Shown: positions 2,499 through 53,144, numbered from the stretch's first letter. The stretch: DNA of 64,000 nt from Candidatus Eiseniibacteriota bacterium (GCA_026388185.1 JAPLKG010000008.1:273149-337148); one strand, 5' to 3'. Numbers and translations are program-made. The notes: generated by a model from the letters alone, not told the origin.

Positions 2499-3055
2499 AG
2501 TATTTTCTCCTGATTGCCGTTTTCTGTTGCGCGATATGCGTGAGCGTGGCAGGCTGCGAAAAGCACTCGAGTTCGAGTCCCGAAAAGACTCCCGCAGAGA
2601 CACCGGATCAGGAAGTGGGGAATTTTTCCCTGACCGAGAGCCTGGAAGGCACCAAGAAGTGGACTCTTTGGGCAGAGTGGGCAGCCATTTACAACGAAAA
2701 GGCGAAAGTTCATGCGAGAAACGTCCGAATAGACTTCTTTGAGGAGGACGGCACCAAGTTTTCCGAGCTGAAGGCCGACTCCGGGATAATTGACCAGAAA
2801 ACCAACGACATGGAAGCTCGGGGGAACGTGTTCGTAAAAACTGAGGACGGTATCACTCTCGAGACCCAATCCTTGAGTTGGCTCAATCTTGCTCAGAAAA
2901 TACTGTCCGACGATTTCGTGAAGATAACTCAAGGGAGAGACGTACTTACCGGCTTCGGTCTAGTTAGTGATCCCAGCCTCAACGAGTTCGAGATAAAGAA
3001 GAACGTTCAGGCCTTCGTGATCGACAAAGAGGGTAAGCTCGTCCCGAAGGGATAG
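2480..3055 (+). CDS. lptC: LptC-like LPS export periplasmic protein (membrane-anchored, possible lipobox VAGC)
   Basis: ATG 2480 preceded by AGGAAAAGGA; N-terminal hydrophobic anchor then OstA-like beta-rich sequence; directly upstream of lptB. Confidence 0.55.
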   Translation: MRRSNLKYFLLIAVFCCAICVSVAGCEKHSSSSPEKTPAETPDQEVGNFSLTESLEGTKKWTLWAEWAAIYNEKAKVHARNVRIDFFEEDGTKFSELKADSGIIDQKTNDMEARGNVFVKTEDGITLETQSLSWLNLAQKILSDDFVKITQGRDVLTGFGLVSDPSLNEFEIKKNVQAFVIDKEGKLVPKG

Positions 3056-3068: not shown

Positions 3069-3803
3069 GTGGGGGAAGCGATGAAAGTTCTCAAAGCCGA
3101 GGGGCTTGTAAAGAATTTCGGGAGGTGGACCGTGGTGAACGACGTGAGCCTTGAGGTCGGGCAGGGCGAAGTCGTGGGGCTTCTCGGGCCAAACGGAGCG
3201 GGCAAAACGACCACGTTCCACATGATCGTGGGTCTCCTCAGACCCGACGCGGGCAGAGTCATGCTCGCTTCTGCAAATGTGACTCGCGTCCCCGTTTTTC
3301 GCAGAGCCCGCATGGGACTTGGCTATCTTTCCCAGGAACCCTCCATTTTTAGAAAGCTGACCGTGAGGGAGAACATCCTCTCCATCTTGGAGACCCTGGA
3401 CCTCACCCACAAGGAGCGAGAGACCAGGGTCGCGAGTCTCCTGGAAGAACTCGGAATCTCTCACCTTGGTGATCGGAGTGCCTACAAGCTCTCCGGAGGG
3501 GAGAGAAGGCGAGTGGAGATCACGAGGGCGCTCGTGAGTAATCCAAGTTTCATGCTGCTGGACGAACCCTTTGTCGGCATAGACCCCATCGCCGTCGGCG
3601 AGATTCAAGACATCGTTCTCAGACTGAAGCAGAAAGGAATAGGGGTCCTCATCACGGATCACAGTGTCAGGGAAACTCTTTCGGCCACGGACAGGGCGTA
3701 CGTCATGTTCGAGGGGAGAATACTGCTCTCCGGCACCGGAGAACAGTTGGCCGGCGACCCTCTTGCCAGGAAGATATATCTGGGCGATAAATTCAGGCTC
3801 TAG
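3069..3803 (+). CDS. lptB: LPS export ABC transporter ATP-binding protein LptB
   Basis: Walker A GPNGAGKTT, ABC signature LSGGERRRVEITRAL, Walker B MLLDEP; conserved lptB-rpoN order. Confidence 0.9.
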   Translation: MGEAMKVLKAEGLVKNFGRWTVVNDVSLEVGQGEVVGLLGPNGAGKTTTFHMIVGLLRPDAGRVMLASANVTRVPVFRRARMGLGYLSQEPSIFRKLTVRENILSILETLDLTHKERETRVASLLEELGISHLGDRSAYKLSGGERRRVEITRALVSNPSFMLLDEPFVGIDPIAVGEIQDIVLRLKQKGIGVLITDHSVRETLSATDRAYVMFEGRILLSGTGEQLAGDPLARKIYLGDKFRL

Positions 3804-3823
3804 CGCAGGGATTGGAACGTGAC

Positions 3824-5233
3824 ATGGAACTAAAGCACAGTCTTCAACTGACACAGAAGCCCACGTTGATAATGACACAGAGGCTTCAACAGGCACTGAA
3901 GCTACTGCAAGTGCCCACGCTCGAGCTTCAACAGATCTTGAAGCAAGAGCTTCTTCAGAACCCTCTCCTGGAAGAAGTGGACGAAGAGGAAGAAGTTCAA
4001 GAAACGTCCAGCTCCGAAGAGGAGACGAGCACGGCGGACGAGCCCGAACCCGTGGAGAAAGAGGATCCGCTTGAGTGGGCCGAGTACTATCAGGAAGGCT
4101 ACGATGCATCTCCGGGCAGACCCGACAACTCCGCCGATCTGCCCGAACGGGTCCCGATCACAGTTCCCACACTGCGCGAGCACCTGCAGAGTCAGTTGAG
4201 AATCTCCACCGACGATCCCGAGCTTACTGAGATTGGGGAGTTTCTCATAGGTTCCATCGACGACAGGGGATTCCTCACGATTACCGCCGAAGAAGTGGCG
4301 ACGTTGATTGGAAAACCCGTGGAGAGGGTTGAGGAGGCCATCAAGTTGGTCCAGTCGTTAGAACCTCCGGGCATCGGCGCACGGGATCTGAGGGAATGCC
4401 TCCTCATCCAGTTGAGTCGTGAGGACGCGGCCGAGAGTCTGGCCGCCAGAATAGTCAGAGATCATTTCGATTCCCTCAAGGATAGAAAATTCGCCGAGAT
4501 CGCAAAGAAGATGCGTGTTCCGATCGTACAGATCCAGGCAGCGGGCGACATAATCTCGAGACTCAATCCGAAGCCGGGTTTCTTGATATCGCAGGAGGAA
4601 CCGAGGTACGTGGTTCCGGACCTGGTTGTGGATAAGGTCGAGGACAAGTACGTCGTGTTTCTCAACGACCGCCACGTTCCGAGGCTTCGCATCAACCCTT
4701 CGTATCGAGACATGTTGCGGGGAGAAAAGGCTCGGAAGGACAAGACAAGAGAGTACATCATAGGCAAGCTCAACTCAGCGAAATGGCTTATTCAGACGAT
4801 AGAACAGAGACGAAAGACCATGGTCAAGGTGATGAAATGTATCGTGGACAGTCAGGAGGAATTTCTCGACAAAGGGATCGCCTTCTTGAGGCCTCTGACT
4901 CTGCAACAGGTGGCCAATCAGATTGGAATGCACGAATCAACCGTCAGCAGAGTCACAAACAACAAGTATGTGCAAACCCCGAGAGGGGTGTTCGAGCTCA
5001 AGTTTTTCTTCTCGAGCAAGTTGCAGACCGATGCCGGCGAAGATATGAGCGCGAAGAGCGCGAAGGACATAATCTCCGTGCTGGTGGAGGAAGAAGACAG
5101 GTCGGATCCTCTGAGCGACCAGAAGATTGCCGACATCTTGAGAGATAGAGGTCTCAGGATCGCAAGGCGCACCGTGGCAAAGTACAGAGAGCAGCTGAGA
5201 TTACTACCGGCTCGCTACAGAAAACGACACTAG
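3824..5233 (+). CDS. rpoN: RNA polymerase sigma-54 factor RpoN
   Basis: N-terminal Gln/Leu-rich region (LQLTQKPTLIMTQRLQQALKLLQ), acidic linker, C-terminal RpoN box ARRTVAKYRE. Confidence 0.9.
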   Translation: MELKHSLQLTQKPTLIMTQRLQQALKLLQVPTLELQQILKQELLQNPLLEEVDEEEEVQETSSSEEETSTADEPEPVEKEDPLEWAEYYQEGYDASPGRPDNSADLPERVPITVPTLREHLQSQLRISTDDPELTEIGEFLIGSIDDRGFLTITAEEVATLIGKPVERVEEAIKLVQSLEPPGIGARDLRECLLIQLSREDAAESLAARIVRDHFDSLKDRKFAEIAKKMRVPIVQIQAAGDIISRLNPKPGFLISQEEPRYVVPDLVVDKVEDKYVVFLNDRHVPRLRINPSYRDMLRGEKARKDKTREYIIGKLNSAKWLIQTIEQRRKTMVKVMKCIVDSQEEFLDKGIAFLRPLTLQQVANQIGMHESTVSRVTNNKYVQTPRGVFELKFFFSSKLQTDAGEDMSAKSAKDIISVLVEEEDRSDPLSDQKIADILRDRGLRIARRTVAKYREQLRLLPARYRKRH

Positions 5234-5271
5234 CCGTTCTTGTGTCCACGTTCCCGCAGGGGTAAACGTTG

Positions 5272-6153
5272 ATGGCAGTTGCCAGGCTTCCCCTCTGGGC
5301 CAGAAAGCCGTTCGCCGAAAACAATGCGACGCGTGAAGTCGACCGTCTGTTGGAGACGCTCGGGCTGAACACAGTCTGCAGGAGCGCGCGATGTCCCAAC
5401 AGGTGGGAATGCTATTCTTTGCCTTCCCTCACTTTCATAATCCTTGGCACAGTCTGTACGAGAAAATGTGGGTTCTGCGGCGTCTCGAAAGGAGAGCCTG
5501 GAAGCGTCGATGCCCGAGAGCCGTTCCGCCTCGCGCAGGCCGCGAGGAAGCTCCGGCTCGATTTCGTGGTGCTCACTTCCGTAACGAGGGACGACCTGTC
5601 GGACGGCGGGGCGTCTCATTTTGCCAGGTGCGTGGAGGAACTGCGAGGGATAGAGACCGGGCCGGGAGTCGAAGTTCTGGTCCCTGATTTCGGAGGGGAA
5701 AGCCGATTCTGTTTGCTTGTGCTGGAGGCACGTCCTGATGTATTCTCTCACAACGTGGAAACCATACCCAGGCTTTACCCGACGGTGAGGCCCGGCGCCG
5801 ATTATTCTGTTTCGCTCAAGCTTATCGAAACTGCCGCGCTTCGTGCCTCAGGCAGCGTCGTCGTCAAATCGGGGTTCATGGTCGGTCTTGGTGAGAAAGA
5901 GGAGGAGGTGATGGATGTTCTGAGAGATCTTAGGAATGCGGGCTGCCGGTCTGTCACAATAGGGCAATACCTCAGGCCCACGTTGCGCAGCCTGCCCGTC
6001 AGAGAGTACGTTTCCCCTGAACGTTTCCGCCACTATGAGGAGACGGGAAAGCGGTTGGGATTCGACGCCGTGTATGCTGGCCCCCTGGTCAGAAGTTCAT
6101 ACAAGGCTTTTGAGATTTGGAGGAATGTCAATGGAGATCACGACTCGAAGTAA
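5272..6153 (+). CDS. lipA: Lipoyl synthase LipA (radical SAM)
   Basis: Auxiliary cluster motif CRSARCPNRWEC and radical-SAM CTRKCGFC motif. Confidence 0.85.
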   Translation: MAVARLPLWARKPFAENNATREVDRLLETLGLNTVCRSARCPNRWECYSLPSLTFIILGTVCTRKCGFCGVSKGEPGSVDAREPFRLAQAARKLRLDFVVLTSVTRDDLSDGGASHFARCVEELRGIETGPGVEVLVPDFGGESRFCLLVLEARPDVFSHNVETIPRLYPTVRPGADYSVSLKLIETAALRASGSVVVKSGFMVGLGEKEEEVMDVLRDLRNAGCRSVTIGQYLRPTLRSLPVREYVSPERFRHYEETGKRLGFDAVYAGPLVRSSYKAFEIWRNVNGDHDSK

Positions 6154-6649
6154 GAATTTCACTGCAAGCCCCGCAATCAGGAGTTATACCGAGGAGAAAC
6201 TCTCCAAGCTGGAGAAGTACTCGAAAAAACTCGTTGAGGCCCACGTGATGTTCTCTCTCGAAAGATACAGGCACATTGCTGAAGTCGTGCTTAGGCTTAA
6301 CGGTGGTGATATCACGAGTCGCGCCGAAAGCAACGACATGTATTCTTCCATTGATACGGTTGTTGATAAGCTCGAAAGGATGTTGAATAAGAGGAAAGAC
6401 AAGGTCACGAGCAGGCGCCAGAGGGGCTCTTTGAAGGAGTCTGGGGCCAAGCTCGAGACGTTAGGGAAACTCGCGACCCTCAGGCCGAAAAAGGTCGTGC
6501 CTCGACAAATGACCGTGGAAGAGGCCATGGACGCTCTGGAAAGAAGTCGCGAGGACATTCTGATATTCGTGAATGCTGCGACGGAGAGAACCACGGTGCT
6601 TCAAAAGAGAGGCGACGGAAACTTCGCTCTGATGGAGCCGGTGAGCTAA
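6131..6649 (+). CDS. hpf: Ribosome hibernation promoting factor HPF (long form with C-terminal dimerisation domain)
   Basis: MEITTRSKNFTASPAIRSYTEEKLSKLEKY... typical HPF/YfiA N-terminus; GGAGGA 8 nt upstream of ATG 6131; overlaps lipA 3' end by 23 nt. Confidence 0.8.
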   Translation: MEITTRSKNFTASPAIRSYTEEKLSKLEKYSKKLVEAHVMFSLERYRHIAEVVLRLNGGDITSRAESNDMYSSIDTVVDKLERMLNKRKDKVTSRRQRGSLKESGAKLETLGKLATLRPKKVVPRQMTVEEAMDALERSREDILIFVNAATERTTVLQKRGDGNFALMEPVS

Positions 6650-6650
6650 G

Positions 6651-7619
6651 ATGCACGGAATCACAATTAGCAGATTCTATGATGATAAACGTGAGGATCT
6701 TCATCTGGAACTCCTCACCAAATCCCTCGAGTCCAAGACAGAGATCACGGCGAGTGACGTGAATAGACCGGGCCTCGCTTTTGCAGGGTTCGTCGGGAAT
6801 TTCCTCCACGAAAGGGTTCAAGTCCTCGGGCAGACGGAATCACTCTATCTGGGCACGCTTCCGGCCGACAAGAGGAGGGAGGCAATCGGGAGGCTGTTCA
6901 ATTTCGCTCTCCCTTGCATCATCGTGGCGAAGGGGCTGGACGTGCCGCCCGAATTCATCGAACTCGGAAATGCTCATTCCGTGCCCATTCTCAGGACCTC
7001 CCTCACTACCACTCCTTTCATACGTGAGCTGACGGCCTATCTTGACGACGTGTTTGCTCCGCGCACGGTGGTGCACGGCTCTCTTGTGGACGTCTATGGC
7101 ATAGGGCTTTTGTTCACCGGACGGAGCTCCATCGGTAAGAGCGAGTGCGCGCTTGACCTTGTGGAGAGAGGTCACAGGCTCGTGGCCGACGACGTCGTGA
7201 ACGTCATGAAGCGGCACGGCAATTTCCTCATAGGTATTTCCTCGGAAATCTTGCGGCATCGCATCGAGATCCGAGGACTCGGAATAATCGACGTGAGAAG
7301 CATATTCGGGATCCGATCCGTCAGACTCCAGAAGAGAATCGAAGTGGAAGTCAGGCTCCAGGATTGGAGTGACGCAGATGACTACGAGAGAATAGGGCTC
7401 GAAGATAGGATGACAAACGTACTCGACGTCGAGATTCCGATTGTCACGGTACCGGTCGTGCCCGGCAAGAACATCACTGTCATCGCAGAGGTGATAGCCC
7501 TCAATCACATTGTGAAGATCTACGGATATCATCCTGCCAAAGACTTTGATGAGAAGCTCATGCAGGCCATGCATCGCAAGAGCTTGCAAGACAGGCTCGT
7601 CAGCGGTGATTGGGAATGA
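6651..7619 (+). CDS. hprK: HPr kinase/phosphorylase HprK
   Basis: P-loop GRSSIGKSE and HprK signature HRIEIRGLGIIDV. Confidence 0.9.
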   Translation: MHGITISRFYDDKREDLHLELLTKSLESKTEITASDVNRPGLAFAGFVGNFLHERVQVLGQTESLYLGTLPADKRREAIGRLFNFALPCIIVAKGLDVPPEFIELGNAHSVPILRTSLTTTPFIRELTAYLDDVFAPRTVVHGSLVDVYGIGLLFTGRSSIGKSECALDLVERGHRLVADDVVNVMKRHGNFLIGISSEILRHRIEIRGLGIIDVRSIFGIRSVRLQKRIEVEVRLQDWSDADDYERIGLEDRMTNVLDVEIPIVTVPVVPGKNITVIAEVIALNHIVKIYGYHPAKDFDEKLMQAMHRKSLQDRLVSGDWE

Positions 7620-8527
7620 CGGAGGCAAGTTCTATCAAGACCCAGGACGAAGGCGCATGCGAGACGAAGGCGCCGCGATTTGTGGTGATCACGGGCGTGT
7701 CGGGGGCCGGAAAGAGCTACGCGATCAAATGCCTCGAGGACATCGGATTCTTCTGCGTGGACAACATGCCCGCCACGCTGATTCCCGTTCTTGCCGATCT
7801 CTGCCTTCAGTACGGTGACAAGATTTCTAACATCGCCCTGGTCGTTGACATACGAGAGAGGGATTTTCTTGACAACATTGCCGGCAGCCTTTCCGAACTG
7901 CGCGGCAAAGGAGTCGAGTACGATCTCCTTTTTCTTGACGCGACGGACGAGGCACTTCTGAGGAGGTTCAGGGAGACTCGGAGGAAGCATCCGCTCGGCG
8001 AAGGAGTGGGTGTGCTCGAGGGCCTCCACGAGGAGAGAAGAAGGGTGGCCTTCCTGAGGGACTCTGCAAGAAGGGTGATCGATACTTCTGCAATGACCCC
8101 GGGAGAGTTGAGGGACGTCCTGTTCGCCGCCTTCGCCACGTCGGACACGAAGCCGGAGCTACTCACGACGATAGTCTCCTTCGGGTACAAGTTCGGCTTG
8201 CCTCTTGATTCGGACGTGGTTCTTGACGCTCGCTTCCTGCCCAATCCCCACTACGTACATGAGCTGCGGGCTTACACGGGCAATGACAAGAAGGTCGTCG
8301 CTTTTCTCGAAGCGTGTGACGTGACCCTCGAGTTCCTGGAGCGCCTCGAGAGCTTTCTCGGATTTCTCCTGCCGCGGTTCGAGAAAGAGGGCAAATCCTA
8401 TCTCACGATCGCCGTTGGGTGCACCGGAGGAAGGCATCGCTCCGTCTACGTCGCGAACAAGATCGCGGATGTGCTCGAGAGACAGGGAGTCGACGTGCGG
8501 GTGCAGCACAGGGACGTGAACAGATGA
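7610..8527 (+). CDS. rapZ: RNase adapter / nucleotide-binding protein RapZ (YvcJ/YhbJ family)
   Basis: Walker A ITGVSGAGKS, C-terminal GCTGGRHRSV motif; conserved neighbour of hprK and PTS genes. Confidence 0.85.
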   Translation: MGMTEASSIKTQDEGACETKAPRFVVITGVSGAGKSYAIKCLEDIGFFCVDNMPATLIPVLADLCLQYGDKISNIALVVDIRERDFLDNIAGSLSELRGKGVEYDLLFLDATDEALLRRFRETRRKHPLGEGVGVLEGLHEERRRVAFLRDSARRVIDTSAMTPGELRDVLFAAFATSDTKPELLTTIVSFGYKFGLPLDSDVVLDARFLPNPHYVHELRAYTGNDKKVVAFLEACDVTLEFLERLESFLGFLLPRFEKEGKSYLTIAVGCTGGRHRSVYVANKIADVLERQGVDVRVQHRDVNR

Positions 8528-8627
8528 TCTGAACGGACGGCCTGGGGTTGCACCTGGCCTGGAAACCGATCACTCGGCTGCCCCATGTTTTTCGCGACAA
8601 CGGGGTGAGGGAGACGCAGCCTAGGAA

Positions 8628-9005
8628 ATGACAAGGGCATTATTGGTCACTCACGGAAACCTCGGAAGTGAACTGGTCAACACCGCGCAGCTCATAGTGG
8701 GCCCGCAGACCGGCGTGAAAGTCCTTTCGAATGAAGAACTCTCCTCCGAGAGCCTGTGCGAGGCCGTGCAGGGTGAGGTGCGCACGTACGGCCAGGACGA
8801 TACGGTGATTTTCGTGGACGTGGCTGGAGGCAGTTGCCTCACGGCCTGCAAGTCGGCGCAGAGCGAGTGCAAGAGAATCAAGGTAGTTTCGGGTGTAAAC
8901 CTGCCGATGGTGCTGGAATTCTTTCATTACAGGAGCAAACTCCCGTTTGACGAGCTTGTGGAGAGGATTCTCGCAAAGGGCAGGGGCGGCATCCAGGCCT
9001 TATAG
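8628..9005 (+). CDS. PTS mannose/fructose/sorbose-family EIIA component
   Basis: N-terminal LLVTHGNLG with phosphorylatable His; about 125 aa EIIA-Man fold size. Confidence 0.7.
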   Translation: MTRALLVTHGNLGSELVNTAQLIVGPQTGVKVLSNEELSSESLCEAVQGEVRTYGQDDTVIFVDVAGGSCLTACKSAQSECKRIKVVSGVNLPMVLEFFHYRSKLPFDELVERILAKGRGGIQAL

Positions 9006-9012
9006 GCGTTTT

Positions 9013-9510
9013 GTGAAGCTTGTTTTGATGAGGATAGACGACAGGCTGCTTCACGCCCAGGTGGCGGTGGGCTGGGTCGGCGCGCTCTCGCCGGACGTCG
9101 TCATCGTGGCCGACGATGACGCGGCTTCGACGCCGGGCCAGGCAAAGCTTCTGGGCATGGGCCTGCCTGACAATGTTGAGCTTGTGGTAGCGAAGGTGGG
9201 CGAAGCGGCAGGCATATTGAAGGAAAGAGCCCTCGACACGAAGAAATGCATCTTGCTTGTGCGGGATCCTCTTGGCGCACTTCAAATTCTTGAGGCCGGG
9301 CTCTCCGTGGAATGGATCAACGTCGGCGGAATGCACTTCGGTGAAGGAAAAACGAAACTCCTTCCGTACGTCTTTGTGGACGGGCGGGATTCTGAAATTC
9401 TGCAGGAGCTTGCCGCCGGAGACGTGAGGCTCGTGGCCCAGGATGTGCCTGGGAATCCGTCCTACGACGTTGTCAAACTACTCAGGAAGGGCAAACTTGA
9501 AGAAGACTAG
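9013..9510 (+). CDS. PTS mannose-family EIIB component
   Basis: GTG 9013 gives VKLVLMRIDDRLLHAQV, matching the EIIB-Man N-terminal phospho-His motif (RIDDRLIHGQV-like). Confidence 0.7.
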   Translation: MKLVLMRIDDRLLHAQVAVGWVGALSPDVVIVADDDAASTPGQAKLLGMGLPDNVELVVAKVGEAAGILKERALDTKKCILLVRDPLGALQILEAGLSVEWINVGGMHFGEGKTKLLPYVFVDGRDSEILQELAAGDVRLVAQDVPGNPSYDVVKLLRKGKLEED

Positions 9511-11710
9511 CTTCGTATTCTGTGTACACAATCACCAACCTGTCGGGAATCTGGACTTCGTGCTGGAGGATGCTTTCGAGAGGGCCTACCTGGCCTTTCT
9601 GAACGTCTTGGCCCGACATCCGTCCATCAAGACCGCGTTTCACGTGAGCGGGGCGCTCCTCGAGTGGATTGAGAGGCATCATCCCCAGTACTTTGACCTG
9701 GTGCGTTCACTTGTGACGCGAGGCCAGCTCGAAATCATGACCGGCGGCTTCTACGAGCCGGTGCTTCCCTCGGTACCCGACGAGGACAAGATAGGACAGA
9801 CAAGAAAACTGACTTCGTTCGTGAAAGAGAAATTCGGTTTTCAGGCCAGGGGCTTGTGGCTTGCGGAGAGAGTCTGGGAGCCGTCGCTGGCAAGCGCAAT
9901 CGGGAGGGCCGGCGTTGAATATACGGTCGTGGATGATTCCCATTTCAAGAGCGCAGGTCTACCGGAAAACGAGCTCCTCGGATACTACCTGACAGAGGAT
10001 CAAGGTACGGTCATCAAGGTGTTCTCGGGTAGCAAACGTCTCAGATACCTGATTCCGTATGCCGATCCCCACGAAACGCTGGACTACCTGCGCGAGAAAG
10101 CCTCCGAAACCGAAGACACTCTTCTCGTTTTTGCGGACGACGGAGAGAAATTCGGGATATGGCCCGGGACTCACAAACTCTGCTATGAAGACAAGTGGCT
10201 AGAGAGATTCTTTACAGCATTGGAAGCAAACAAGGAATGGGTGAGCGTTGTCACATTCTCGGAATATATCTCGCAGCACAAACCCCTCGGTTGGGTTTTT
10301 CTTCCCGCGGCGTCGTACGCGGAAATGATGGAGTGGAGTCTTCCCGTCGAGGCTCAGCTCAGGTATCACGAATTCCTAGGAAAGCTGAGTGCGAGCGGTG
10401 AATTCGAGAGATACGAGAGCTTCGTGAAGGGAGGATTCTGGCGCAATTTTCTTAGTAGGTATCCTGAGAGCAATTGGATGCACAAGCGCATGCTGTACGC
10501 AAGGCGTAAGGTGTTGAGAGACGTCCCTTCGGAGCTTCGGAAGGCGTCTTCGGAATCGAGGAGGCCACTCGGGTCGGCCGGGGCTCGCGAGGTCGCCCTC
10601 AACGAAATATGGAAGGCGCAGTGCAATTGCGCGTACTGGCACGGGGTCTTCGGCGGTCTCTATTTGCCTCATCTGAGAGAGGCCATCTACAGGCACATCA
10701 TCCGAGCGGACAAACTGGCGAGTGAGGTGCCGGGGAATGTCGCGCCCGCGCCGACTGTTGAGCGAGTCGATGTTGACGGAGACGGTGCGGAGGAGATCGC
10801 GATCTCGAACGGCAAGCTTGTGTGTTTCATCGCTCCGGCCAGGGGAGGGACCGTCGTAGAGATTGATGACGTGGCTCACGAGATAAACCTCGTCAACACT
10901 CTGGCCCGTCGCAGGGAGGCGTATCACAGTCAGATCAAGACCGGCGCCGGCGATAAATCCGGTGAGAAGGTCGCCAGTATTCATGACGCGGTCGTGGCGA
11001 AGGAGGAAAAACTGGACGAGTTCCTCTTCTACGACAGGTTCCCCAGGGTTTGCCTGCTCGACCATTTTCTGTCGCCCCGGACTTCGCTCAGCGAACTCTT
11101 TGAAAGCAAATTCGAGGACCTGGGGAATTTCGCGGGTGCTCCCTACACCGAGAAATCACCCTTCAGGGATGGGCGAGTCGTGTTGAGCGCCTCGGGGATG
11201 GTCCGTTCGGCGACCGAAACGGCACGCTTGACCATCGACAAGACTCTGTCTGTTCCAGCCGGTGTGGCTTCACTCCAGGTGTCCTACGATCTCAGTTTCG
11301 GAAGCCAGAGGGGCGCGGAGTTGCTGTTTGTTCCCGAACTGAATCTATTGATTCCCTCCGGCCGCGGAGCCCAGGGCAAGGTTGACACAGACGCGTTGGG
11401 CGCGCGGGTTGTAGAACTCTCGAGTCCCGGCGAATTTCTTGGCGTCAGAGGGTTGACATTGACTGACGAACGCGTGGGACTCTCGGTGACGATCTCGATG
11501 GGAACGGCTTGCAAACTCTGGCAATTCCCCGTCGAAACAGTTTCCCTGTCCGAGGGCGGCCTCGAGAAAATCTATCAGGGCACGTGTGTCATGCTGGCCT
11601 GGCCGCTGCCCGCGGGGATCAGGCAAGCGAGCTTCGATATTCGTATGGAGTTCAAAACCTCGGACGCTAAGCACGCTCTGACAAGCAGTACGCGCGCGGC
11701 CGGGAGATAA
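9497..11710 (+). CDS. Glycoside hydrolase family 57 protein (alpha-amylase / 4-alpha-glucanotransferase-like)
   Basis: TTG 9497 with AGGAAGG upstream; N-terminal FVFCVHNHQPVGN and downstream GH57-like blocks (LWLAERVWEPSL, VFADDGEKFGIWPG). Confidence 0.75.
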   Translation: MKKTSFVFCVHNHQPVGNLDFVLEDAFERAYLAFLNVLARHPSIKTAFHVSGALLEWIERHHPQYFDLVRSLVTRGQLEIMTGGFYEPVLPSVPDEDKIGQTRKLTSFVKEKFGFQARGLWLAERVWEPSLASAIGRAGVEYTVVDDSHFKSAGLPENELLGYYLTEDQGTVIKVFSGSKRLRYLIPYADPHETLDYLREKASETEDTLLVFADDGEKFGIWPGTHKLCYEDKWLERFFTALEANKEWVSVVTFSEYISQHKPLGWVFLPAASYAEMMEWSLPVEAQLRYHEFLGKLSASGEFERYESFVKGGFWRNFLSRYPESNWMHKRMLYARRKVLRDVPSELRKASSESRRPLGSAGAREVALNEIWKAQCNCAYWHGVFGGLYLPHLREAIYRHIIRADKLASEVPGNVAPAPTVERVDVDGDGAEEIAISNGKLVCFIAPARGGTVVEIDDVAHEINLVNTLARRREAYHSQIKTGAGDKSGEKVASIHDAVVAKEEKLDEFLFYDRFPRVCLLDHFLSPRTSLSELFESKFEDLGNFAGAPYTEKSPFRDGRVVLSASGMVRSATETARLTIDKTLSVPAGVASLQVSYDLSFGSQRGAELLFVPELNLLIPSGRGAQGKVDTDALGARVVELSSPGEFLGVRGLTLTDERVGLSVTISMGTACKLWQFPVETVSLSEGGLEKIYQGTCVMLAWPLPAGIRQASFDIRMEFKTSDAKHALTSSTRAAGR

Positions 11711-11713
11711 GGA

Positions 11714-12415
11714 ATGTTGAGGGAGATTCTTCTTCTCTGTCTGGCCGGCGGAGTGTGCGCGCTCGACACGGCCACCGCCTGGCAGCTCATGCTGAGCCAG
11801 CCCCTCGTGAGTGGGACGGCTGCGGGCTTGTTGGTCGGCGCCCCCCACGCGGGGATCTTCATAGGACTCGTGCTTCAACTCCTCTGGTCCGCCGCCATTC
11901 CCATGGGAGCCCGCCCCATGCCCGACGCGCCTGTCGGATCCGTGAGCGGGGTCTGGTTCGCCGTGACTCTTCTTGAAACCAATTGCCTCGCTTCGTCTTC
12001 CTTTTGCTATCTTCTCGGCCTGATTGCCGCCTTGGCCGTGGCGCTGTTGGGGAGACGGACAATACTGCTCGAGCGCGAGATCGGTCGAAGGCTCTTCAAG
12101 AGATTCGTGAAAAATGTGAACGACGGTCGGGACGCCCGCCCGGAGAAGGCGGTCTCGCTTGCCGTGGCGATCGGCTTTGCGCGGGGCTTTCTCCTATGTC
12201 TTCTGGCCATGGGTGCTCTGACTCCACTGGCGCTCTTGCTTGCGGAGAATCCCGGCCTGTCAGCGCGTGACTACAGTCTCACGCTTCTAGTTCTTGAGGC
12301 CCTGGGGGTGGGCGTCCTCTTCTCCGTTTTTGTCGGCAGGTCAAGAGCTCGCCTCCTCACCTTCGGGGGTGGTGCGGCCTGGGCTTTTCTCATCATGAGC
12401 GTTTTTCGCCGATGA
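11714..12415 (+). CDS. PTS mannose-family EIIC membrane component
   Basis: Polytopic hydrophobic protein; LMLSQPLVSGTAAGLLVG resembles EIIC-Man N-terminal motif; sits between GH57 gene and IID. Confidence 0.6.
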   Translation: MLREILLLCLAGGVCALDTATAWQLMLSQPLVSGTAAGLLVGAPHAGIFIGLVLQLLWSAAIPMGARPMPDAPVGSVSGVWFAVTLLETNCLASSSFCYLLGLIAALAVALLGRRTILLEREIGRRLFKRFVKNVNDGRDARPEKAVSLAVAIGFARGFLLCLLAMGALTPLALLLAENPGLSARDYSLTLLVLEALGVGVLFSVFVGRSRARLLTFGGGAAWAFLIMSVFRR

Positions 12416-13185
12416 GGTGTCAAGTGGGCGAGAGGAACCTGGGCAAGTTGGATCTTGTTCGGTTGGTGCTCCGTTCCTTCTATCTGCAGGCGGCGTGGAA
12501 CTACGAAGGCCTGCAGACGTTGGGGTTTGCGTATGTGATGTTTCCCGTGGCCCGCAAGCTCGGTTGTGGAACGACCGCGACACGGGAATTCGCAGTGCGA
12601 CATCTCAGGCTTTTCAATACGAATCCTGTTCTTGCTTCGTACATCATCGGGGCTACTGCAAAGCTGGAAGAAGAGCGTGAAAGGGGGAAGGTGAGCGCCG
12701 CCGACGTGGAAGCGCTAAAGAGCTCGCTCGCCGTTCCTCTTGCCGCCGTCGGTGATCGTTTCTTCTGGGCAAGCATGAGACCACTTTCCGGAATGCTGGG
12801 TGTGCTGATTGCGGGTGGGTTCGGGGTCCTGGGCGCGGTTGCGTTGCTCGTGCTGTACAACGTCTTCCACATCTACTACAGGGTGAAGGGTGTGCTCAGA
12901 GGATACACGTTGGGCGCCGGTGTCGTCGGAGAGATTCCGAAGCTTAGGCTCATGACACTGAGCCGGACCGTCGGATGGGTTGGGGCCGCGACAGCGGGCA
13001 TTCTGCTCGTGGGGGTCGTTCATGCCTGGAGCGGTGGGTGGAAACGGGAGGCCCTGTTGCTGCTTCCTGTCGTGGCGATAGCGAGCGGGCTTCTGCGAGA
13101 GTCGTTTCAGAAGAGAATCACCGAGGTCGCCATCGCCGTTGGAGCCGCGGGGCTTGTTTTGACAGCCAGCGGGATTTTCGGTTAG
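12412..13185 (+). CDS. PTS mannose-family EIID membrane component
   Basis: N-terminal LRSFYLQAAWNYEGLQTLGFAY typical of EIID; ATGA start/stop overlap with IIC. Confidence 0.65.
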   Translation: MRCQVGERNLGKLDLVRLVLRSFYLQAAWNYEGLQTLGFAYVMFPVARKLGCGTTATREFAVRHLRLFNTNPVLASYIIGATAKLEEERERGKVSAADVEALKSSLAVPLAAVGDRFFWASMRPLSGMLGVLIAGGFGVLGAVALLVLYNVFHIYYRVKGVLRGYTLGAGVVGEIPKLRLMTLSRTVGWVGAATAGILLVGVVHAWSGGWKREALLLLPVVAIASGLLRESFQKRITEVAIAVGAAGLVLTASGIFG

Positions 13186-13214
13186 TATCACGTGGAACTT
13201 GTTTTGGAAGAACA

Positions 13215-13484
13215 ATGCTTGTGACAACGCTTACAATCACTAACGACCCGGGTGTTCACCTGCGGGCTGCGGCGATATTCGTGAAGGAAGCCAGCCGGTT
13301 TAGGTCGGACATTTGGGTGATGAAAGACGACATCGAAGTCAACGGCAAGAGTATTCTCGGGCTTGTCTCTCTTGTTGCCGAGCGAGGTTCGTCCATCCGT
13401 ATAAGGGTCCAAGGAGAGGATGAAACCGAGGCGCTCGCGATCCTCACTGATCTCGTTCAGAACAAGTTCTACGAGGACCAATAG
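13215..13484 (+). CDS. ptsH: Phosphocarrier protein HPr
   Basis: 89 aa; His15-region GVHLRAAA and Ser46-region GKSILGL (HprK target). Confidence 0.85.
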   Translation: MLVTTLTITNDPGVHLRAAAIFVKEASRFRSDIWVMKDDIEVNGKSILGLVSLVAERGSSIRIRVQGEDETEALAILTDLVQNKFYEDQ

Positions 13485-13496
13485 CAGGTTTTCCGC

Positions 13497-15257
13497 ATGG
13501 CAGTATCCAACTCCAGAATCATCAGAGGCATCCCGGCGTCTCCTGGAATTGCCATCGGCAAAGCTCACATTCTTGAACTCGAAGAGCTCCACGTGAGGGA
13601 GAGACAGGTCGAGCCCCAGGACGTTGAGGAAGAAGTCCGGCGATTCAAGGCCGCTCTTTTCACGGCGCGCAAGGAGATGGAAGCGCTGATAGAAACAATA
13701 GAGGAAGAACTCGGACCGGAGCAGGCGAAGATATTCGACGCACACTTGATGATACTCGATGACGTCGTGGCTGTAGACAAGACGATGAAGGCGATTCGCG
13801 AAGGAAGAAGGAACGCCGAGTTTGCGTACAGAGGAACCCTTTCCGAGATCGCGGAAGGGCTTGACCTCGCCAAGGAAGAGCATTTCAGGGACAGCGCAGC
13901 CGACGTACGTGATGTCAAGAGAAGGGTCATAAGACACCTGCTCGACGAACCTCGACGAGGCCTCGGAACGATAAAGGGACAGGTAGTGCTGCTGGCGCAC
14001 GACCTCACGCCGAGCGAAGCGGTGTTGCTGAGCAAGGACACCGTGCTCGGCTTTGCCACGGACTCTGGTGGCAGGACGTCGCACGCAGCCATAATGGCTC
14101 GGTCGAGAGGCATCCCCGCCGTTGTCGGGCTCAAATACGTGACGGCCCACGTCAAGGCCGGAGACACGGTGGTAGTGGACGGGAATAGGGGCTTGGTCGA
14201 TGTGAATCCCACCGATCAGGCCCTTCAGGAATACAGGAAGAGACAACAGCGGCTACTCGATCTGGAAGGAATGCTACTCGACATAAGAGAGCTGCCCGCG
14301 GTCACGACTGACGGACACAGAATAGAGCTTTCGGCAAACATAGAGATGCCGGAGGAGGTGGAGTCCGCCCTGGCAAAGGGAGCGGGAGGCGTCGGACTGT
14401 ACAGAACGGAATTCTTCTACATGAAGAGTGCCAAACTCCCGGGAGAGGAAGAACAGTACGAGGCATACAAGAAAGTCGCCGAGAGATGTCATCCGTATCC
14501 CGTGATAATTCGCACGGTGGACGTCGGAGGCGACAAGTTTGCCTCCTATCTCGGAGCCGCGAAGGAGAACAATCCATTCCTTGGGTGGAGAGGGATAAGG
14601 TTCTCCCTGGAGAGACAGGAGATATTCAAGATCCAATTGAGGGCGATTTTCCGTGCGGCCGCGGCCGGCAACGTGAAACTGATGTTCCCGATGATTTCCA
14701 GCCTCGACGAACTGAGACAGGCCAACACAATCTGTGCGCAGGTTCAAGAAGATCTGAGGCAGAGAGGCGTGCCTTTCGGAGACAATTGTGAAATAGGGAT
14801 CATGGCGGAAACGCCCGCATCAGTCATGATAGCTGATTCCCTGGCCGGAGAGGCCGATTTTTTCAGCATCGGTACGAACGACCTCATACAATATACGCTC
14901 GCAGTAGACAGAGGCAATGAGAAGATTGCCTATCTGTATGATCCCTTGCATCCGGCCATCCTGAAGTCCATAAAGACACTGGTGGACGCGGGACACAGGC
15001 ACAACATCTGGGTCGGAGTGTGTGGTGAGATGTGCGGTGATCCTGTCGGGGCAGTGATCTTGCTGGGGCTCGGCCTGGACGAATTCAGTACAAGCCCGTA
15101 CCTTCTTCCCGAAATAAAAACGATCGTGCGTTCTGTGAGCTACGCGGAGACCAAGGAGCTTGCAGACAAGGCCTTGTGTCTATCGACGGCTGCAGACGTC
15201 AGAAGCTTCGTCGAGGAAGTGATTGTAGCGAAGTTTCCTCAAATCCTGTCCCCTTGA
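13497..15257 (+). CDS. ptsI: Phosphoenolpyruvate-protein phosphotransferase, PTS Enzyme I
   Basis: 586 aa; phospho-His region GGRTSHAAIMAR, PEP-utilising C-terminal domain. Confidence 0.9.
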   Translation: MAVSNSRIIRGIPASPGIAIGKAHILELEELHVRERQVEPQDVEEEVRRFKAALFTARKEMEALIETIEEELGPEQAKIFDAHLMILDDVVAVDKTMKAIREGRRNAEFAYRGTLSEIAEGLDLAKEEHFRDSAADVRDVKRRVIRHLLDEPRRGLGTIKGQVVLLAHDLTPSEAVLLSKDTVLGFATDSGGRTSHAAIMARSRGIPAVVGLKYVTAHVKAGDTVVVDGNRGLVDVNPTDQALQEYRKRQQRLLDLEGMLLDIRELPAVTTDGHRIELSANIEMPEEVESALAKGAGGVGLYRTEFFYMKSAKLPGEEEQYEAYKKVAERCHPYPVIIRTVDVGGDKFASYLGAAKENNPFLGWRGIRFSLERQEIFKIQLRAIFRAAAAGNVKLMFPMISSLDELRQANTICAQVQEDLRQRGVPFGDNCEIGIMAETPASVMIADSLAGEADFFSIGTNDLIQYTLAVDRGNEKIAYLYDPLHPAILKSIKTLVDAGHRHNIWVGVCGEMCGDPVGAVILLGLGLDEFSTSPYLLPEIKTIVRSVSYAETKELADKALCLSTAADVRSFVEEVIVAKFPQILSP

Positions 15258-15301
15258 TTCGCCGTCCTGCTGGTAACTGTCCGACTTTCTGAGAGGGAAT
15301 C

Positions 15302-16369
15302 ATGATACTTGACGCCCCGATCGAGTTGAGAAAAATGGATCCTTCCGGAATGCTGAGGCTGGTCAGCGATATGCCTCAGCACATCGAGAAGGCGATGGTC
15401 ATCAGTTCCTCCGCCCCGGTGGGTGTGTCCGACTCAGGGTTCAGGCACGTGGCGGTGGCCGGCATGGGGGGCTCGGCCATTGCGGGTGACCTGGTGAAAA
15501 TGCTCATGGAGGAGAGGGCCGGTATTCCGTGCGTTGTGGTGAGGGAGTATGACTCCCCTCTTTTCGTGGGGCAGCGGACGTTGCTCTTCTGTTCGAGTTA
15601 CTCGGGCAACACGGAGGAGTCGCTCTCGCTGTACGAAGACGCCAGGAAGAGAGGTGCGCGCGTCATTTGTCTCGGGTCCGGCGGTGAGCTCCAGAGGCGC
15701 GCCATGGTGGACGGCGTGCCTTTCCTCAAGATGGAAGAGGGATTGCCTCCGAGAGCGGCAATCGGATACTCCTTCTTCATGATGTACGACGTGCTGCGTC
15801 GAATGTCCATTCTTCCCGAAGAGCCTGGAGAAGCGAGCGAGGTCGTCTCGCTACTCAGAAGCAAGACACAAACTTATCACGAGGAGACTCCAACCTCTCA
15901 CAATCCTGCCAAGAAGCTGGCCGCGGAGCTTTTCAACAGGTTCGTGGTCGTCTACGGAAGCAAGCTCACGTCCTGCGTAGCACTAAGGTGGAAATGTCAA
16001 CTGAACGAGAACAGCAAGACGCCGGCCTACGTCGGCAGCTTTCCGGAACTCGATCACAATGAGATTGTGGGTTGGCGTGGGTTGAAGACGCTCGGTATCC
16101 CCACAGAAGCGATCGTTCTGAGAGATTCCTCTGAACACGACAGGGTCGGCAGGCGAATAGACATTACACTCGAGCTGATGAAGGCCGACGGAGTACAAAC
16201 GAAAGAGGTCTGGAGCGAAGGGCGAAGCCTTCTGGCGAGAATCTTTTCATTGATTTACCTCGGCGATTTCGTTAGCATCTACCTTGCCATGCTCCGTGGT
16301 GAAGATCCGACTCCGGTACGAAGAATAGACGAACTCAAGAAGAGATTGTCGGAGGAAACGAACACATGA
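15302..16369 (+). CDS. Bifunctional phosphoglucose/phosphomannose isomerase (SIS-domain, archaeal-type PGI/PMI)
   Basis: SIS-domain sequence with VAVAGMGGSAIAGD and CSSYSGNTEE motifs. Confidence 0.65.
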   Translation: MILDAPIELRKMDPSGMLRLVSDMPQHIEKAMVISSSAPVGVSDSGFRHVAVAGMGGSAIAGDLVKMLMEERAGIPCVVVREYDSPLFVGQRTLLFCSSYSGNTEESLSLYEDARKRGARVICLGSGGELQRRAMVDGVPFLKMEEGLPPRAAIGYSFFMMYDVLRRMSILPEEPGEASEVVSLLRSKTQTYHEETPTSHNPAKKLAAELFNRFVVVYGSKLTSCVALRWKCQLNENSKTPAYVGSFPELDHNEIVGWRGLKTLGIPTEAIVLRDSSEHDRVGRRIDITLELMKADGVQTKEVWSEGRSLLARIFSLIYLGDFVSIYLAMLRGEDPTPVRRIDELKKRLSEETNT

Positions 16370-17346
16370 GGACGAAGGCAATAATCCCAGTGGCCGGCGT
16401 GGGAGCTCGATTGAGGCCCCATACGCACACGGTTCCGAAGGCGCTGATGAATGTTGCCGGCAAGCCTATTCTGGCTCACATTCTTGATCAGCTTCCGGAG
16501 CTCGGAATCCAGGAAGTGGTCATGGTTGTTGGATACATGGGAGACAGGATAAGGCAGTACGTAGAGGGGAACTACTCTCTAAATGTGACGTACGTGGAAC
16601 AGGAGGAGAGAAAGGGTCTCGGTCACGCCGTTCATCTCACGGAGACTCACGTGAAGGACTCCCCGGTTCTCATCGTCTTGGGAGACACGATTTTCAAAGC
16701 AGACTTCTCCAAGGTCGTTGGTGGGACGACCAATTACATAGGCGTCAAGGAGGTCGCGGATCCGCGAAATTTCGGAGTCGTCGAGGTGACAAACGGCCAC
16801 ATCAAGAGGCTCGTCGAGAAACCGGAAGTCCCGCCCAGCAATCTGGCCATAGTCGGTGTGTACTACGTTGCACAGACCGAGCTGATGTTCGAGTGCATTC
16901 GCGAAATCATGCGAAGGAAGATAAGGACCAAGGGCGAATATCAGCTCACGGATGCACTCCAGCTCATGCTTGACCGCGGCTCCGAGATGCAGACCTTTTC
17001 CATCCACGGCTGGTACGATTGCGGCAAGACCGAGACACTGCTCATTGCCAATCGCGATCTCTTGGAGCTTGTCCGACATCAGCCGACAATATCTGGCAGC
17101 ATCATCGTACCTCCCGTGGCAATAGACGAGTCGGCGAAAATCGACAACTGTGTGCTGGGACCGCACGTGTCCGTAGACACAGGTGCGATCGTCAGGAACT
17201 CGATTGTGCGCAATTGCATCATCAATGCCCACGCTTGCGTGGAGGACATACTCCTGGACGCTTCTGTGGTGGGTGAGAACGCGGTGGTACGAGGCGCCTT
17301 CAAGAAGGTGAACGTCGGAGACTCTTCAGAGGTGCAACTGACCTAG
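16366..17346 (+). CDS. Sugar-phosphate nucleotidyltransferase (NDP-sugar pyrophosphorylase) with C-terminal left-handed beta-helix
   Basis: N-terminal KAIIPVAGVGARLRP nucleotidyltransferase motif; hexapeptide-like C-terminus; ATGA overlap with upstream gene. Confidence 0.7.
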   Translation: MRTKAIIPVAGVGARLRPHTHTVPKALMNVAGKPILAHILDQLPELGIQEVVMVVGYMGDRIRQYVEGNYSLNVTYVEQEERKGLGHAVHLTETHVKDSPVLIVLGDTIFKADFSKVVGGTTNYIGVKEVADPRNFGVVEVTNGHIKRLVEKPEVPPSNLAIVGVYYVAQTELMFECIREIMRRKIRTKGEYQLTDALQLMLDRGSEMQTFSIHGWYDCGKTETLLIANRDLLELVRHQPTISGSIIVPPVAIDESAKIDNCVLGPHVSVDTGAIVRNSIVRNCIINAHACVEDILLDASVVGENAVVRGAFKKVNVGDSSEVQLT

Positions 17347-17364
17347 CAAGCGGAGGATCGTTGA

Positions 17365-18507
17365 ATGGAGAAGAATCGTCTCTTTACGTCCGAATCGGTG
17401 AGTGAGGGCCATCCTGACAAAGTTGCGGACCAGATCTCGGACGGGATTCTCGATGCGTTGATCGAACTCGACCCGCTGTGCAGGGTGGCCTGTGAAACCC
17501 TTGTCACCACGGGTCTGGTGTTTGTGGCAGGCGAGATCAGTACGTCCTGCTACGTCGAGATACCTGAGATAGTTCGCTCGATCGTGAGAGACATAGGGTA
17601 TACGGATGCCAGCTACGGCTTTGATTACGAAACCTGTGCGGTCATAACTTCGATTGACGATCAATCCGAGGACATAGCCCTGGGTGTCGACAAGCACGGC
17701 GCGGGTGACCAGGGTCTCATGTTCGGGTACGCCACGACCGAAACCCCGGAGCTCATGCCGCTGCCGATACTGCTCGCGCATCGTCTCGCCAGGAGACTGG
17801 CCCACGTCAGAAAGGCGGGCATACTCCCTTACTTGAGGCCCGACGGAAAAACGCAGGTCACAGTTCGGTACGAAGGAGACAGGCCCGTCGGAGTGGAAAC
17901 CGTCATAGTCTCCACCCAGCATCATCCCGACGTTGCGCACGCCAAGATTGAGAACGACGTCATCGAGTCCGTGATCAAAGCTGTGATTCCCAAGGAGATG
18001 CTCCAGGGCAGAAACGTGAATTATTTCGTAAATCCGACCGGGAGGTTCGTGAAAGGCGGCCCCCTTGCAGACACGGGTCTAACGGGAAGAAAGATAATCG
18101 TCGACACGTACGGTGGCGTCGGTAGCCATGGGGGCGGATGCTTCTCGGGGAAGGATCCATCGAAGGTTGACAGATCCGCGTCCTACGCGTGCAGACACGT
18201 GGCCAAGAACATCGTGGCCGCCGGTCTTGCGACGAAGTGCGAAATACAGGTGGCCTACGCAATCGGAATCGCGAAGCCCGTCTCGGTTACCATAGACACC
18301 TTCGGGACGGGCCAGCTTCCTGATGATGAGATATCGAGGCTCGTAACGAAGCACTTCGATCTCACTCCTCTGGGAATAATCGAAAGGCTCAAGCTCAGAC
18401 GTCCCATATACAGATCTGTGGCCGTCTACGGTCATTTTGGCCGTGAAGAGCCGAATCTCACCTGGGAATTTCGTGACATGGTTGACGTTCTTAAGAAGGG
18501 AGTCTAG
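17365..18507 (+). CDS. metK: S-adenosylmethionine synthetase MetK
   Basis: [21 protein letters not shown] and GGGAFSGKD-like motifs. Confidence 0.95.
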
Positions 18508-18510
18508 GCG

Positions 18511-19782
<1,272 letters not shown>

Positions 19783-30258: not shown

Positions 30259-30363
30259 GATTTTGTCCCTCGGTGCATTCAGGAGCAGAGCCCGTCGCTG
30301 CGAGCCGGGAGGATGATCCTGGAGTACCGGTCGGGAAGAGGTATCGAGAGGAGAAACGGCCCC

Positions 30364-31737: not shown

Positions 31738-31779
31738 ATAGCGGAACTGAGACGGACGCGTGCACGCGGGAAGGAGGAG

Positions 31780-32901: not shown

Positions 32902-32999
32902 GGAGTTCCGGTATCGAGCCGCTCGTTCGTCGGAGATTTCTGCTGGATCGAGACGTCGATTGAGGCACGTTGCGCCTTGTTTGACGAGATGGTGGAAAA

Positions 33000-40625: not shown

Positions 40626-40641
40626 TGGCACAGTTTGTGCT
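40626..40641 (+). promoter_or_regulatory. Candidate sigma-54 (-24/-12) promoter TGGCACA-N4-GTGC
   Basis: TGGCAC at 40626..40631, GC at 40639..40640 with the canonical GG-to-GC spacing; in the 400-bp leader upstream of the TonB-dependent receptor; rpoN is in this window. Confidence 0.35.
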
Positions 40642-53113: not shown

Positions 53114-53144
53114 TCAGACACGCTGTTCGAACGGAGGCGATGAC

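Follow-up and report, generated by a model that had tools for sequence, protein, structure and literature searches.

A 64,000-nt stretch of the genome of a Candidatus Eiseniibacteriota bacterium (JAPLKG010000008.1:273149-337148; hereafter the window, numbered from its first letter) carries the genes of a mannose-family phosphotransferase system (PTS), with the gene of a glycoside hydrolase of family 57 (GH57) lying between those of its EIIB and EIIC components. The five genes of this block are located on the plus strand at 8628-13185 in the order EIIA-EIIB-GH57-EIIC-EIID. All five products score above their Pfam cut-offs, and their phospho-acceptor and catalytic residues are intact. The mannose-type EIIA (8628-9005; EIIA-man, 54.5 bits against a cut-off of 21.4) has the phospho-acceptor His9 and is followed by a mannose/sorbose-family EIIB (9016-9510; PTSIIB_sorb, 123 bits, cut-off 27), the phospho-acceptor histidine of which lies in the motif RIDDRLLHAQV. 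The GH57 gene (9497-11710) encodes a 737-aa protein of the 4-alpha-glucanotransferase/alpha-amylase type with the domains Glyco_hydro_57, AmyA-A_glucT_m and AmyA-gluTrfs_C. Downstream of it lie the genes of a divergent ManY homologue of 233 aa (EIIC, mannose family, 11714-12415; EII-Sor, 53.8 bits, cut-off 26.3) and of a ManZ homologue (EIID, mannose family, 12412-13185; EIID-AGA, 143 bits, cut-off 25).

The junctions between these genes are tight. The TTG start of GH57 at 9497, which is preceded by AGGAAGGG, lies upstream of the EIIB stop codon (TAG, 9508-9510), giving an overlap of 14 nt. The stop codon of GH57 (TAA, 11708-11710) is separated by 3 nt from the EIIC ATG at 11714, and EIIC and EIID have an ATGA at 12412-12415 in common. 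This gene order and these boundaries had been put forward in a first-pass annotation of the window, together with a 737-aa GH57 enzyme between EIIB and EIIC. Open reading frames (ORFs) and reading of the sequence confirm the former, and the enzyme is borne out by Pfam and by genes called independently on a public contig of identical sequence (L081), where its length is the same. For EIIB, the most plausible start as judged from the sequence is GTG 9016, which gives VKLVLMRIDDRLLHAQV, or ATG 9028; TTG 8947, which opens the longest ORF and is the choice of gene callers, is probably wrong. An exact-sequence look-up of EIID from ATG 12412 returned no match, the public annotation (P0001, 253 aa, 100% identical) starting at the alternative GTG 12424. 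P0001 belongs to an NCBI assembly that bears the label Candidatus Eisenbacteria.

In order to see how widespread the arrangement is, we scanned the GTDB species genomes with GH57, kept the best 80 of 569 confirmed relatives and read the contents of their loci by tblastn and iterative hidden Markov model searches. The closest relative, from a metagenome-assembled genome (MAG) of Eisenbacteria, is 57% identical to the window enzyme, and the rest of the best 80 are about 40% identical. The order EIIA-EIIB-GH57-EIIC-EIID, continued by the genes for HPr and enzyme I (EI), was found in 27 of these 80 best loci, a fraction that does not stem from an unbiased sample. The labels of the 27 loci include Eisenbacteria, Krumholzibacteriota, Firestonebacteria, Elusimicrobiota, FCPU426 and unclassified. 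In 24 of 26 loci EIIB and GH57 are spaced by -59 to +126 nt, and in 26 of 27 the spacing of GH57 and EIIC is between -40 and +79 nt. The sole locus with a wide GH57-EIIC gap, L017 from a MAG labelled Clostridia, has a gene for a class I S-adenosylmethionine (SAM)-dependent methyltransferase (L017:10299-10931) between the two.

Searches from Endomicrobiales GH57 sequences led to Endomicrobium MAGs and from these to the cultured Endomicrobium proavitum Rsa215. Its complete genome (CP009498.1) reads lptC-lptA-lptB-hpf-ptsN-hprK-rapZ-CofD-EIIA-EIIB-GH57-EIIC-EIID-HPr-EI; GH57 overlaps its neighbours by 4 nt on either side, and the same order is present in the Endomicrobium MAGs. This is the same operon as that of the window, EIIA to EI after hprK-rapZ. 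The two loci differ in that, in the window, rpoN and a radical SAM gene lie upstream and genes for a phosphoglucose/phosphomannose isomerase (PGI/PMI) and a nucleotidyltransferase after EI, whereas ptsN and CofD are found in E. proavitum and are absent from the window. The first-pass annotation had made its case depend on the arrangement being present in relatives, and it recurs both in the 27 loci and in E. proavitum. With an identical insertion point across several phyla and in E. proavitum, the location of GH57 within the PTS is not a chance adjacency.

GH57 is linked to the PTS core and not to the permease only, as is evident from five loci (L032, L034, L036, L038, L045) in which it directly precedes HPr-EI although EIIC and EIID are absent; two of these, L032 and L036, are placed within EII-bearing Elusimicrobiota by the GH57 tree as well as by the EI tree. 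In the Elusimicrobiota that have lost the membrane components, most of the soluble EII genes are gone too. The order rapZ-CofD/YvcK-GH57-HPr-EI is found in L032, L034 and L038, with the CofD/YvcK-family genes at L032:6991-8004, L034:6663-7988 and L038:5362-6618. Genes of this family also follow rapZ in L089 and L090, and the order resembles the yvcJ(rapZ)-yvcK-whiA-crh cluster of Bacillus subtilis. An additional PtsN-type EIIA is carried by L038, L088, L089 and L090. In L087 (5652-8517, on a 12.6-kb contig), an orphan EIID gene stands directly before HPr and EI, and EIIA, EIIB and EIIC are missing from its surroundings.

Further glycogen genes are present in the operons of two Elusimicrobiota loci. 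In L022:2754-10130, rapZ is separated from EIIA by genes for a DUF4912 protein and a GH57 branching enzyme, and a second GH57/BE_C branching-enzyme paralogue lies between EIIB and the Thermococcus litoralis-type GH57. In L036:4705-10136, DUF4912 and a GH57 branching enzyme are located after rapZ and before EIIA, which is retained; EIIB, EIIC and EIID are absent. In phyla without the PTS context, the orthologous GH57 adjoins GlgC (above the equivalog cut-off) and GH57 branching enzymes. By gene content, a functional tie of the GH57-PTS locus to glycogen metabolism is thus well supported.

Homologues of the window EIID with 32-42% identity sit in PTS operons without GH57, namely in a Gemmatimonadales MAG (L085) and in three metagenome contigs (L083, L084, L086). 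These uninterrupted operons have the order (hpf)-hprK-(rapZ)-EIIA-EIIB-EIIC-EIID-HPr-EI-metK, in which the PTS genes are arranged as in the window, but they have no GH57 at the EIIB/EIIC junction and no PGI after EI. The three contigs carry genes for a ManC-type nucleotidyltransferase and a phosphoglucomutase (PGM) a few genes downstream. The occurrence of uninterrupted operons indicates that GH57 was either inserted into, or lost from, an older conserved operon. Neighbour-joining (NJ) trees of GH57 and EI broadly track taxonomy with poorly resolved backbones, which fit a single clade of PTS-linked GH57 with one origin as well as repeated gain or loss.

One explanation of this pattern is that the EIIB/EIIC junction is merely a tolerated site, at which GH57 was inserted once and has since been inherited without a function in the PTS. 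The operons that lack GH57, the unrelated methyltransferase at the GH57/EIIC junction of L017 and trees compatible with a single old insertion agree with such hitch-hiking. We nevertheless consider it highly improbable, because the order has been retained with overlapping frames over phylum-level distances, at a GH57 identity of only ~40% between groups, and because glycogen genes have been recruited repeatedly, at two different junctions of the operon. In addition, the adjacency of GH57 and HPr-EI outlived the loss of EII genes.

The GH57 protein itself has the complete T. litoralis-type architecture, consisting of a catalytic (beta/alpha)7 domain, a helical middle domain and, at the C-terminus, a beta-sandwich domain according to Pfam (Glyco_hydro_57, PF03065, 174.6 bits with a cut-off of 21.2; PF09094, 110 bits; PF09095, 217 bits). 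Residues 1-706 align with the 4-alpha-glucanotransferase of T. litoralis (PDB 1K1W, E 2e-151), and the five GH57 conserved regions are matched as HNHQP, GQLEI, WLAERVW, DDGEKFG and AQCNCAYWHG. By this alignment, Glu124 (WLAERVW) is the predicted nucleophile and Asp215 (DDGEKFG) the predicted acid/base. Glu124, the Asp214-Asp215 pair and the conserved regions are invariant across 81 GH57 orthologues. The window enzyme thus has the three-domain architecture and both catalytic residues in common with the T. litoralis protein (1K1W/1K1X/1K1Y), from which it differs in being bacterial and 78 residues longer, owing to loop insertions and a C-terminal tail. On every sequence-level feature it belongs to the T. 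litoralis-type group, and its activity is predicted on that ground. NCBIfam has no model for this protein, and the public labels of the group are "DUF1926 domain-containing" and "alpha-amylase/4-alpha-glucanotransferase domain-containing". To our knowledge, the archaeal enzyme is not encoded within a PTS operon.

The catalytic motif HNHQP begins at residue 11, leaving no signal peptide, and the enzyme is therefore predicted to be cytoplasmic. Extracellular starch processing coupled to uptake was rejected for the same reason. We then compared PTS-linked GH57 proteins with the other orthologues (81 sequences). No residue was found to separate them, i.e. to be present in at least 80% of the PTS-linked proteins and in at most 25% of the others, and no group-specific indel was found; mean identity is 0.42-0.43 inside the PTS-linked and the other group and 0.41 across groups. 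On this comparison, the idea of a specialised PTS-linked paralogue was rejected. The PTS-linked GH57 accordingly looks like an ordinary orthologue, in which the context has changed and not the enzyme. With regard to function, the first-pass annotation had offered coupled uptake and alpha-glucan processing or a regulatory PTS tied to glycogen metabolism. The tie to glycogen metabolism gained ground from the GlgC and branching-enzyme neighbours and from the genes recruited into the operon, and coupled uptake lost ground, because GH57 is predicted to be cytoplasmic, is undifferentiated and is retained beside HPr-EI without EIIC and EIID.

The same comparison bears on control at the protein level, whereby HPr, HPr phosphorylated at its serine (P-Ser-HPr), EIIA or EIIB would bind or phosphorylate GH57 according to the phosphoenolpyruvate (PEP)/pyruvate and fructose-1,6-bisphosphate state. 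A dedicated interface or phospho-site would be expected to leave a trace in the sequence, yet no residue, motif or indel of GH57 is PTS-specific, and GH57 orthologues from phyla that lack the PTS context do not look any different. We therefore regard this kind of control as improbable, although GH57 still adjoins HPr-EI where the EII genes have been lost, hprK and the Ser46 site of HPr are conserved, and a precedent exists in the regulation of Escherichia coli glycogen phosphorylase by HPr (PMC13324651, PMC11046441). This precedent resembles the window in that it links the PTS directly to a glycogen enzyme. It differs in being a protein-protein link between the products of unlinked genes and in involving a GT35 enzyme, whereas the link in the window is genomic.

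Turning to the PTS proteins, all four mannose-family components are present, including the family-specific EIID. His9 of EIIA (in THG), the R, D, R, L, H and Q of the EIIB motif RIDDRLLHAQV, with its phospho-acceptor His9, and G13, H15, R17, K45 and S46 of HPr are invariant in the 27 loci, and the phospho-relay appears functional in form. EIID matches E. coli ManZ (6K1H_Z) with an E value of 1e-30. A search of the PDB with the single EIIC sequence did not find ManY; with the family profile, which was needed here, E. coli ManY (6K1H_Y/7DYR_Y) is matched with an E value of 9e-26. The prospect raised in the first-pass annotation that EIIC and EIID might be degenerate pseudogenes is ruled out by their intact, conserved ORFs and their homology to ManY and ManZ. 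Matches of the EII proteins to NCBIfam sugar-specificity models were all below the equivalog cut-offs; by analogy, the substrate is probably glucose. Passages of PMC11257099 and PMC8809381 treat the mannose-type PTS of Endomicrobiaceae as complete and as a system that probably takes up glucose; in those of PMC11257099 it is said to compensate for the loss of glucokinase, and those of PMC8809381 report growth of E. proavitum on glucose.

Sub-threshold specificity matches would also agree with a catabolic alpha-glucoside operon, in which maltose or a short alpha-glucoside would enter the cell and be phosphorylated through EII-Man, the resulting phospho-sugar then being processed by GH57. We know of no GH57 enzyme that acts on phospho-sugars. 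Moreover, HPr, EI and HprK are encoded in the same run of genes, at an rpoN/hprK/rapZ locus, and no regulator gene, dedicated to a sugar or otherwise, was seen in 3800-18500, which sets the locus apart from dedicated catabolic PTS-glycosidase operons. The same PTS operon occurs without any hydrolase in other lineages, GH57 is indistinguishable from its orthologues in glycogen clusters, and glucose reportedly supports growth of E. proavitum. A catabolic operon is thus a rather remote prospect. What speaks for it is that glycoside hydrolase genes are common in PTS clusters. The gnb PTS of Lacticaseibacillus casei belongs to the mannose class. Its lacto-N-biose/galacto-N-biose cluster, for example, contains the gene of a cytoplasmic glycoside hydrolase, GH35 GnbG, among the EII genes (PMC10432377), as is the case for GH57 in the window. 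The gnb cluster is, however, an operon dedicated to catabolism, which has a regulator of its own and no EII genes other than sugar-specific ones, whereas the window combines general PTS proteins with a GH57 of a polymer-active type that is shared with glycogen clusters.

The five-gene block is part of a longer co-directional run on the plus strand. It comprises a kdsD-like gene (SIS+CBS), a lipid A acyltransferase gene, lptC (2327-3055; Pfam LptC), lptB (3069-3803; Pfam ABC_tran), rpoN for sigma-54 (3824-5233; Sigma54_AID/CBD/DBD in the L081 gene call), a lipoyl-synthase-like radical SAM gene (5272-6153; Pfam Radical_SAM), hpf for a ribosome hibernation factor (6131-6649; Ribosomal_S30AE and S30AE_C in the L081 gene call), hprK for HPr kinase/phosphorylase (6651-7619; Hpr_kinase_N, 124 bits, and Hpr_kinase_C, 211 bits) and a rapZ-like gene (7610-8527; RapZ-like_N and PapZ_C). 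After EIID, the run continues with the genes for HPr with His15 and Ser46 (13215-13484; PTS-HPr, 88 bits), a sugar-type EI of 586 aa (13497-15257; its only domains in the L081 gene call are PEP-utilisers_N, PEP-utilizers and PEP-utilizers_C, with no GAF), a bifunctional PGI/PMI (15302-16369; NCBIfam NF006426, 384.5 bits, cut-off 295), a sugar-1-phosphate nucleotidyltransferase (16366-17346; Pfam NTP_transferase), the best NCBIfam match of which, rmlA_long, is below its cut-off, and with metK. In most loci of Eisenbacteria and Krumholzibacteriota, PGI/PMI likewise comes after EI. The radical SAM protein has lipoyl-synthase-like Cys motifs, and the order rpoN-radical SAM-hpf is also found in seven related loci (L033, L045, L049, L059, L060, L071, L073), which belong to Krumholzibacteriota, Eisenbacteria and unclassified MAGs.

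The E. coli locus of the nitrogen-related PTS (PTS-Ntr) has the order lptB-rpoN-hpf-ptsN-rapZ-npr, and in proteobacteria PTS-Ntr is tied to carbon-storage polymers, as described in reviews on polyhydroxyalkanoates. In its position and neighbours (lptC, lptB, rpoN, hpf, rapZ and an HPr-family gene), the E. coli locus corresponds to that of the window; the hprK-rapZ-EIIA-Man-HPr-EI clusters of other Gram-negative bacteria are likewise rpoN-linked regulatory PTS loci akin to it. In contrast to PTS-Ntr, the EI of the window has no GAF domain, its EIIA is of the mannose type and not EIIA-Ntr, the EIIC/EIID permease is there in full, the locus has a glycogen enzyme embedded in it, and there is no ptsN in the window. 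It is accordingly analogous to PTS-Ntr in position and not a member of it.

The glycogen genes that the first-pass annotation had seen nearby are real. A separate block at 30313-34598 on the plus strand encodes a phosphoglucomutase/phosphomannomutase (PGM/PMM, 30313-31737), a DUF4912 protein (31780-32901) and a GH57 branching enzyme (33000-34598), as assigned with Pfam and NCBIfam, and an alpha-glucan phosphorylase is encoded at 53145-54863, also on the plus strand (TIGR02094, 550 bits, cut-off 192). The latter gene lies in a glycolysis run at 48495-58067 (pfk, class II fba, pyk, second pfk, gap, pgk and tpi, by Pfam), between the second pfk and gap, and is the second glycogen enzyme of the window to be found within a central-carbon operon.

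Such a setting invites the idea of a metabolic hand-over, in which GH57 would free glucose from glycogen-derived maltodextrins, as MalQ does, and the surrounding EII-Man would phosphorylate this glucose to glucose-6-phosphate, either at an inward-facing site or after leak and recapture, making the PTS the glucose kinase of glycogen breakdown. The idea is attractive because of the exact insertion point of GH57, between the phosphoryl-donor (EIIA-EIIB) and the sugar-binding (EIIC-EIID) halves in 27 loci and in E. proavitum, because PGI/PMI follows EI in many loci, and because the window offers a parallel in the glucose-1-phosphate-producing phosphorylase embedded in the glycolysis operon. Intracellular glucose has been reported to be phosphorylated by the mannose-type PTS of streptococci, which speaks for a hand-over, whereas the wild-type EII proteins of E. 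coli phosphorylate internal sugar poorly, which speaks against it. The PTS said to offset glucokinase loss in Endomicrobiaceae, according to passages of PMC11257099, fits as well. On the other hand, five loci keep GH57 beside HPr-EI without EIIC and EIID, which argues for an enzyme that is independent of the permease. Overall, we see the hand-over as conceivable but unlikely. A little less probable again is its stricter form, namely that EII-Man and GH57 constitute one glycogen-to-glucose-6-phosphate module, the permease phosphorylating the released glucose from the cytoplasmic side with PEP and GH57 possibly being docked at the membrane EII complex. If true, such a module would make a PTS "transporter" the kinase of storage-polymer breakdown and would assign a defined physiological role to the mannose-type PTS, linked to rpoN/hprK, that is widespread in non-model phyla.

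As to expression, crude consensus scans of 3500-19000 for sigma-70 promoters and terminators gave no signals above chance. A search for the sigma-54 consensus returned 27 matches with 26 expected, none of them upstream of EIIA. The spacing of the genes suggests that GH57 is co-transcribed with EIIA-EIIB upstream and EIIC-EIID-HPr-EI downstream. The best sigma-70-like match of the region is located at 13159-13188 (TTGACA, an 18-nt spacer and TAGTAT, 10/12 positions), in the last codons of EIID and 27 nt 5' of the HPr start at 13215. An internal HPr-EI promoter could be conceived there, the scan as a whole not exceeding chance. At 40626-40641, TGGCACAGTTTGTGCT resembles a sigma-54 -24/-12 element with one mismatch, such matches occurring window-wide in the number expected by chance; it precedes the gene of a TonB-dependent receptor (40799-43492) by about 160 nt.

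Between this receptor gene and a PorV/FadL-like gene lies an ORF of 820 aa (43540-46002) without a Pfam match. Two other ORFs, 23527-24261 (244 aa) and 58945-59973 (minus strand, 342 aa), have no Pfam match either. Long ORFs are nearly all on the plus strand in the window. Of its 32 2-kb bins, 31 have a positive GC skew; the steadily rising cumulative GC skew fits one leading-strand segment of a replichore.

We favour the reading that expression of a general PTS operon at a carbon-status locus includes, as an integral part, that of an ordinary cytoplasmic alpha-glucan enzyme, and assign it a probability of about 0.5. GH57 would act as a cytoplasmic alpha-1,4-glucan enzyme of glycogen or maltodextrin turnover, its gene being placed within a general mannose-family PTS operon at the rpoN-hpf-hprK-rapZ locus. 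It would be transcribed together with the flanking EIIA-EIIB and EIIC-EIID-HPr-EI genes and often be translationally coupled to them. Through this shared transcription and frequent coupling, the capacity for alpha-glucan turnover would be made in step with that for the uptake and phosphorylation of a hexose, probably glucose, and with the HprK/HPr module. The selective benefit would be that storage-glucan metabolism is coordinated with PTS activity.

Several points weigh against this reading. Shared expression by itself leaves the constant insertion point between EIIB and EIIC unexplained. The PGI/PMI and nucleotidyltransferase genes downstream would fit glycogen synthesis, while the 4-alpha-glucanotransferase and the phosphorylase elsewhere in the window would fit glycogen breakdown. 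Related lineages have the same PTS operon without GH57, so that the coupling of GH57 and PTS is not obligatory, and the NJ trees are too poorly resolved to separate a single origin from repeated gain and loss. Finally, the evidence for co-transcription consists of gene spacing and the lack of signals in crude consensus scans.

The first-pass annotation had not been aware of GH57 inside mannose-type PTS operons. In one respect this needs qualification, as the order is already contained in the published complete genome CP009498.1. In another it stands: full-text literature searches found no description of GH57 inside a mannose-type PTS, and the searched passages of PMC11257099 and PMC8809381 make no mention of GH57 within the Endomicrobiaceae PTS operon. 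As far as we searched, the conserved combination is apparently undescribed, though present in public annotated genomes. It unites elements that are known individually, i.e. rpoN/hprK-linked PTS, glycosidase genes in PTS clusters and PTS control of storage polymers. The finding is a conserved multi-phylum signal and not a new mechanism.

The role of HprK and of rpoN-adjacent PTS genes in bacteria of the Gram-negative type is still poorly understood. That several mostly uncultured phyla have retained the arrangement provides comparative evidence for a locus that coordinates sugar phosphorylation and signalling with storage-glucan turnover, and its presence in the cultured E. proavitum makes it testable at the bench. 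It also provides a physiological context for a large, poorly named group of bacterial GH57 proteins annotated as DUF1926. Overall, the recurring GH57-PTS order suggests that the signalling of sugar uptake and the turnover of glycogen are linked in a way not described before.

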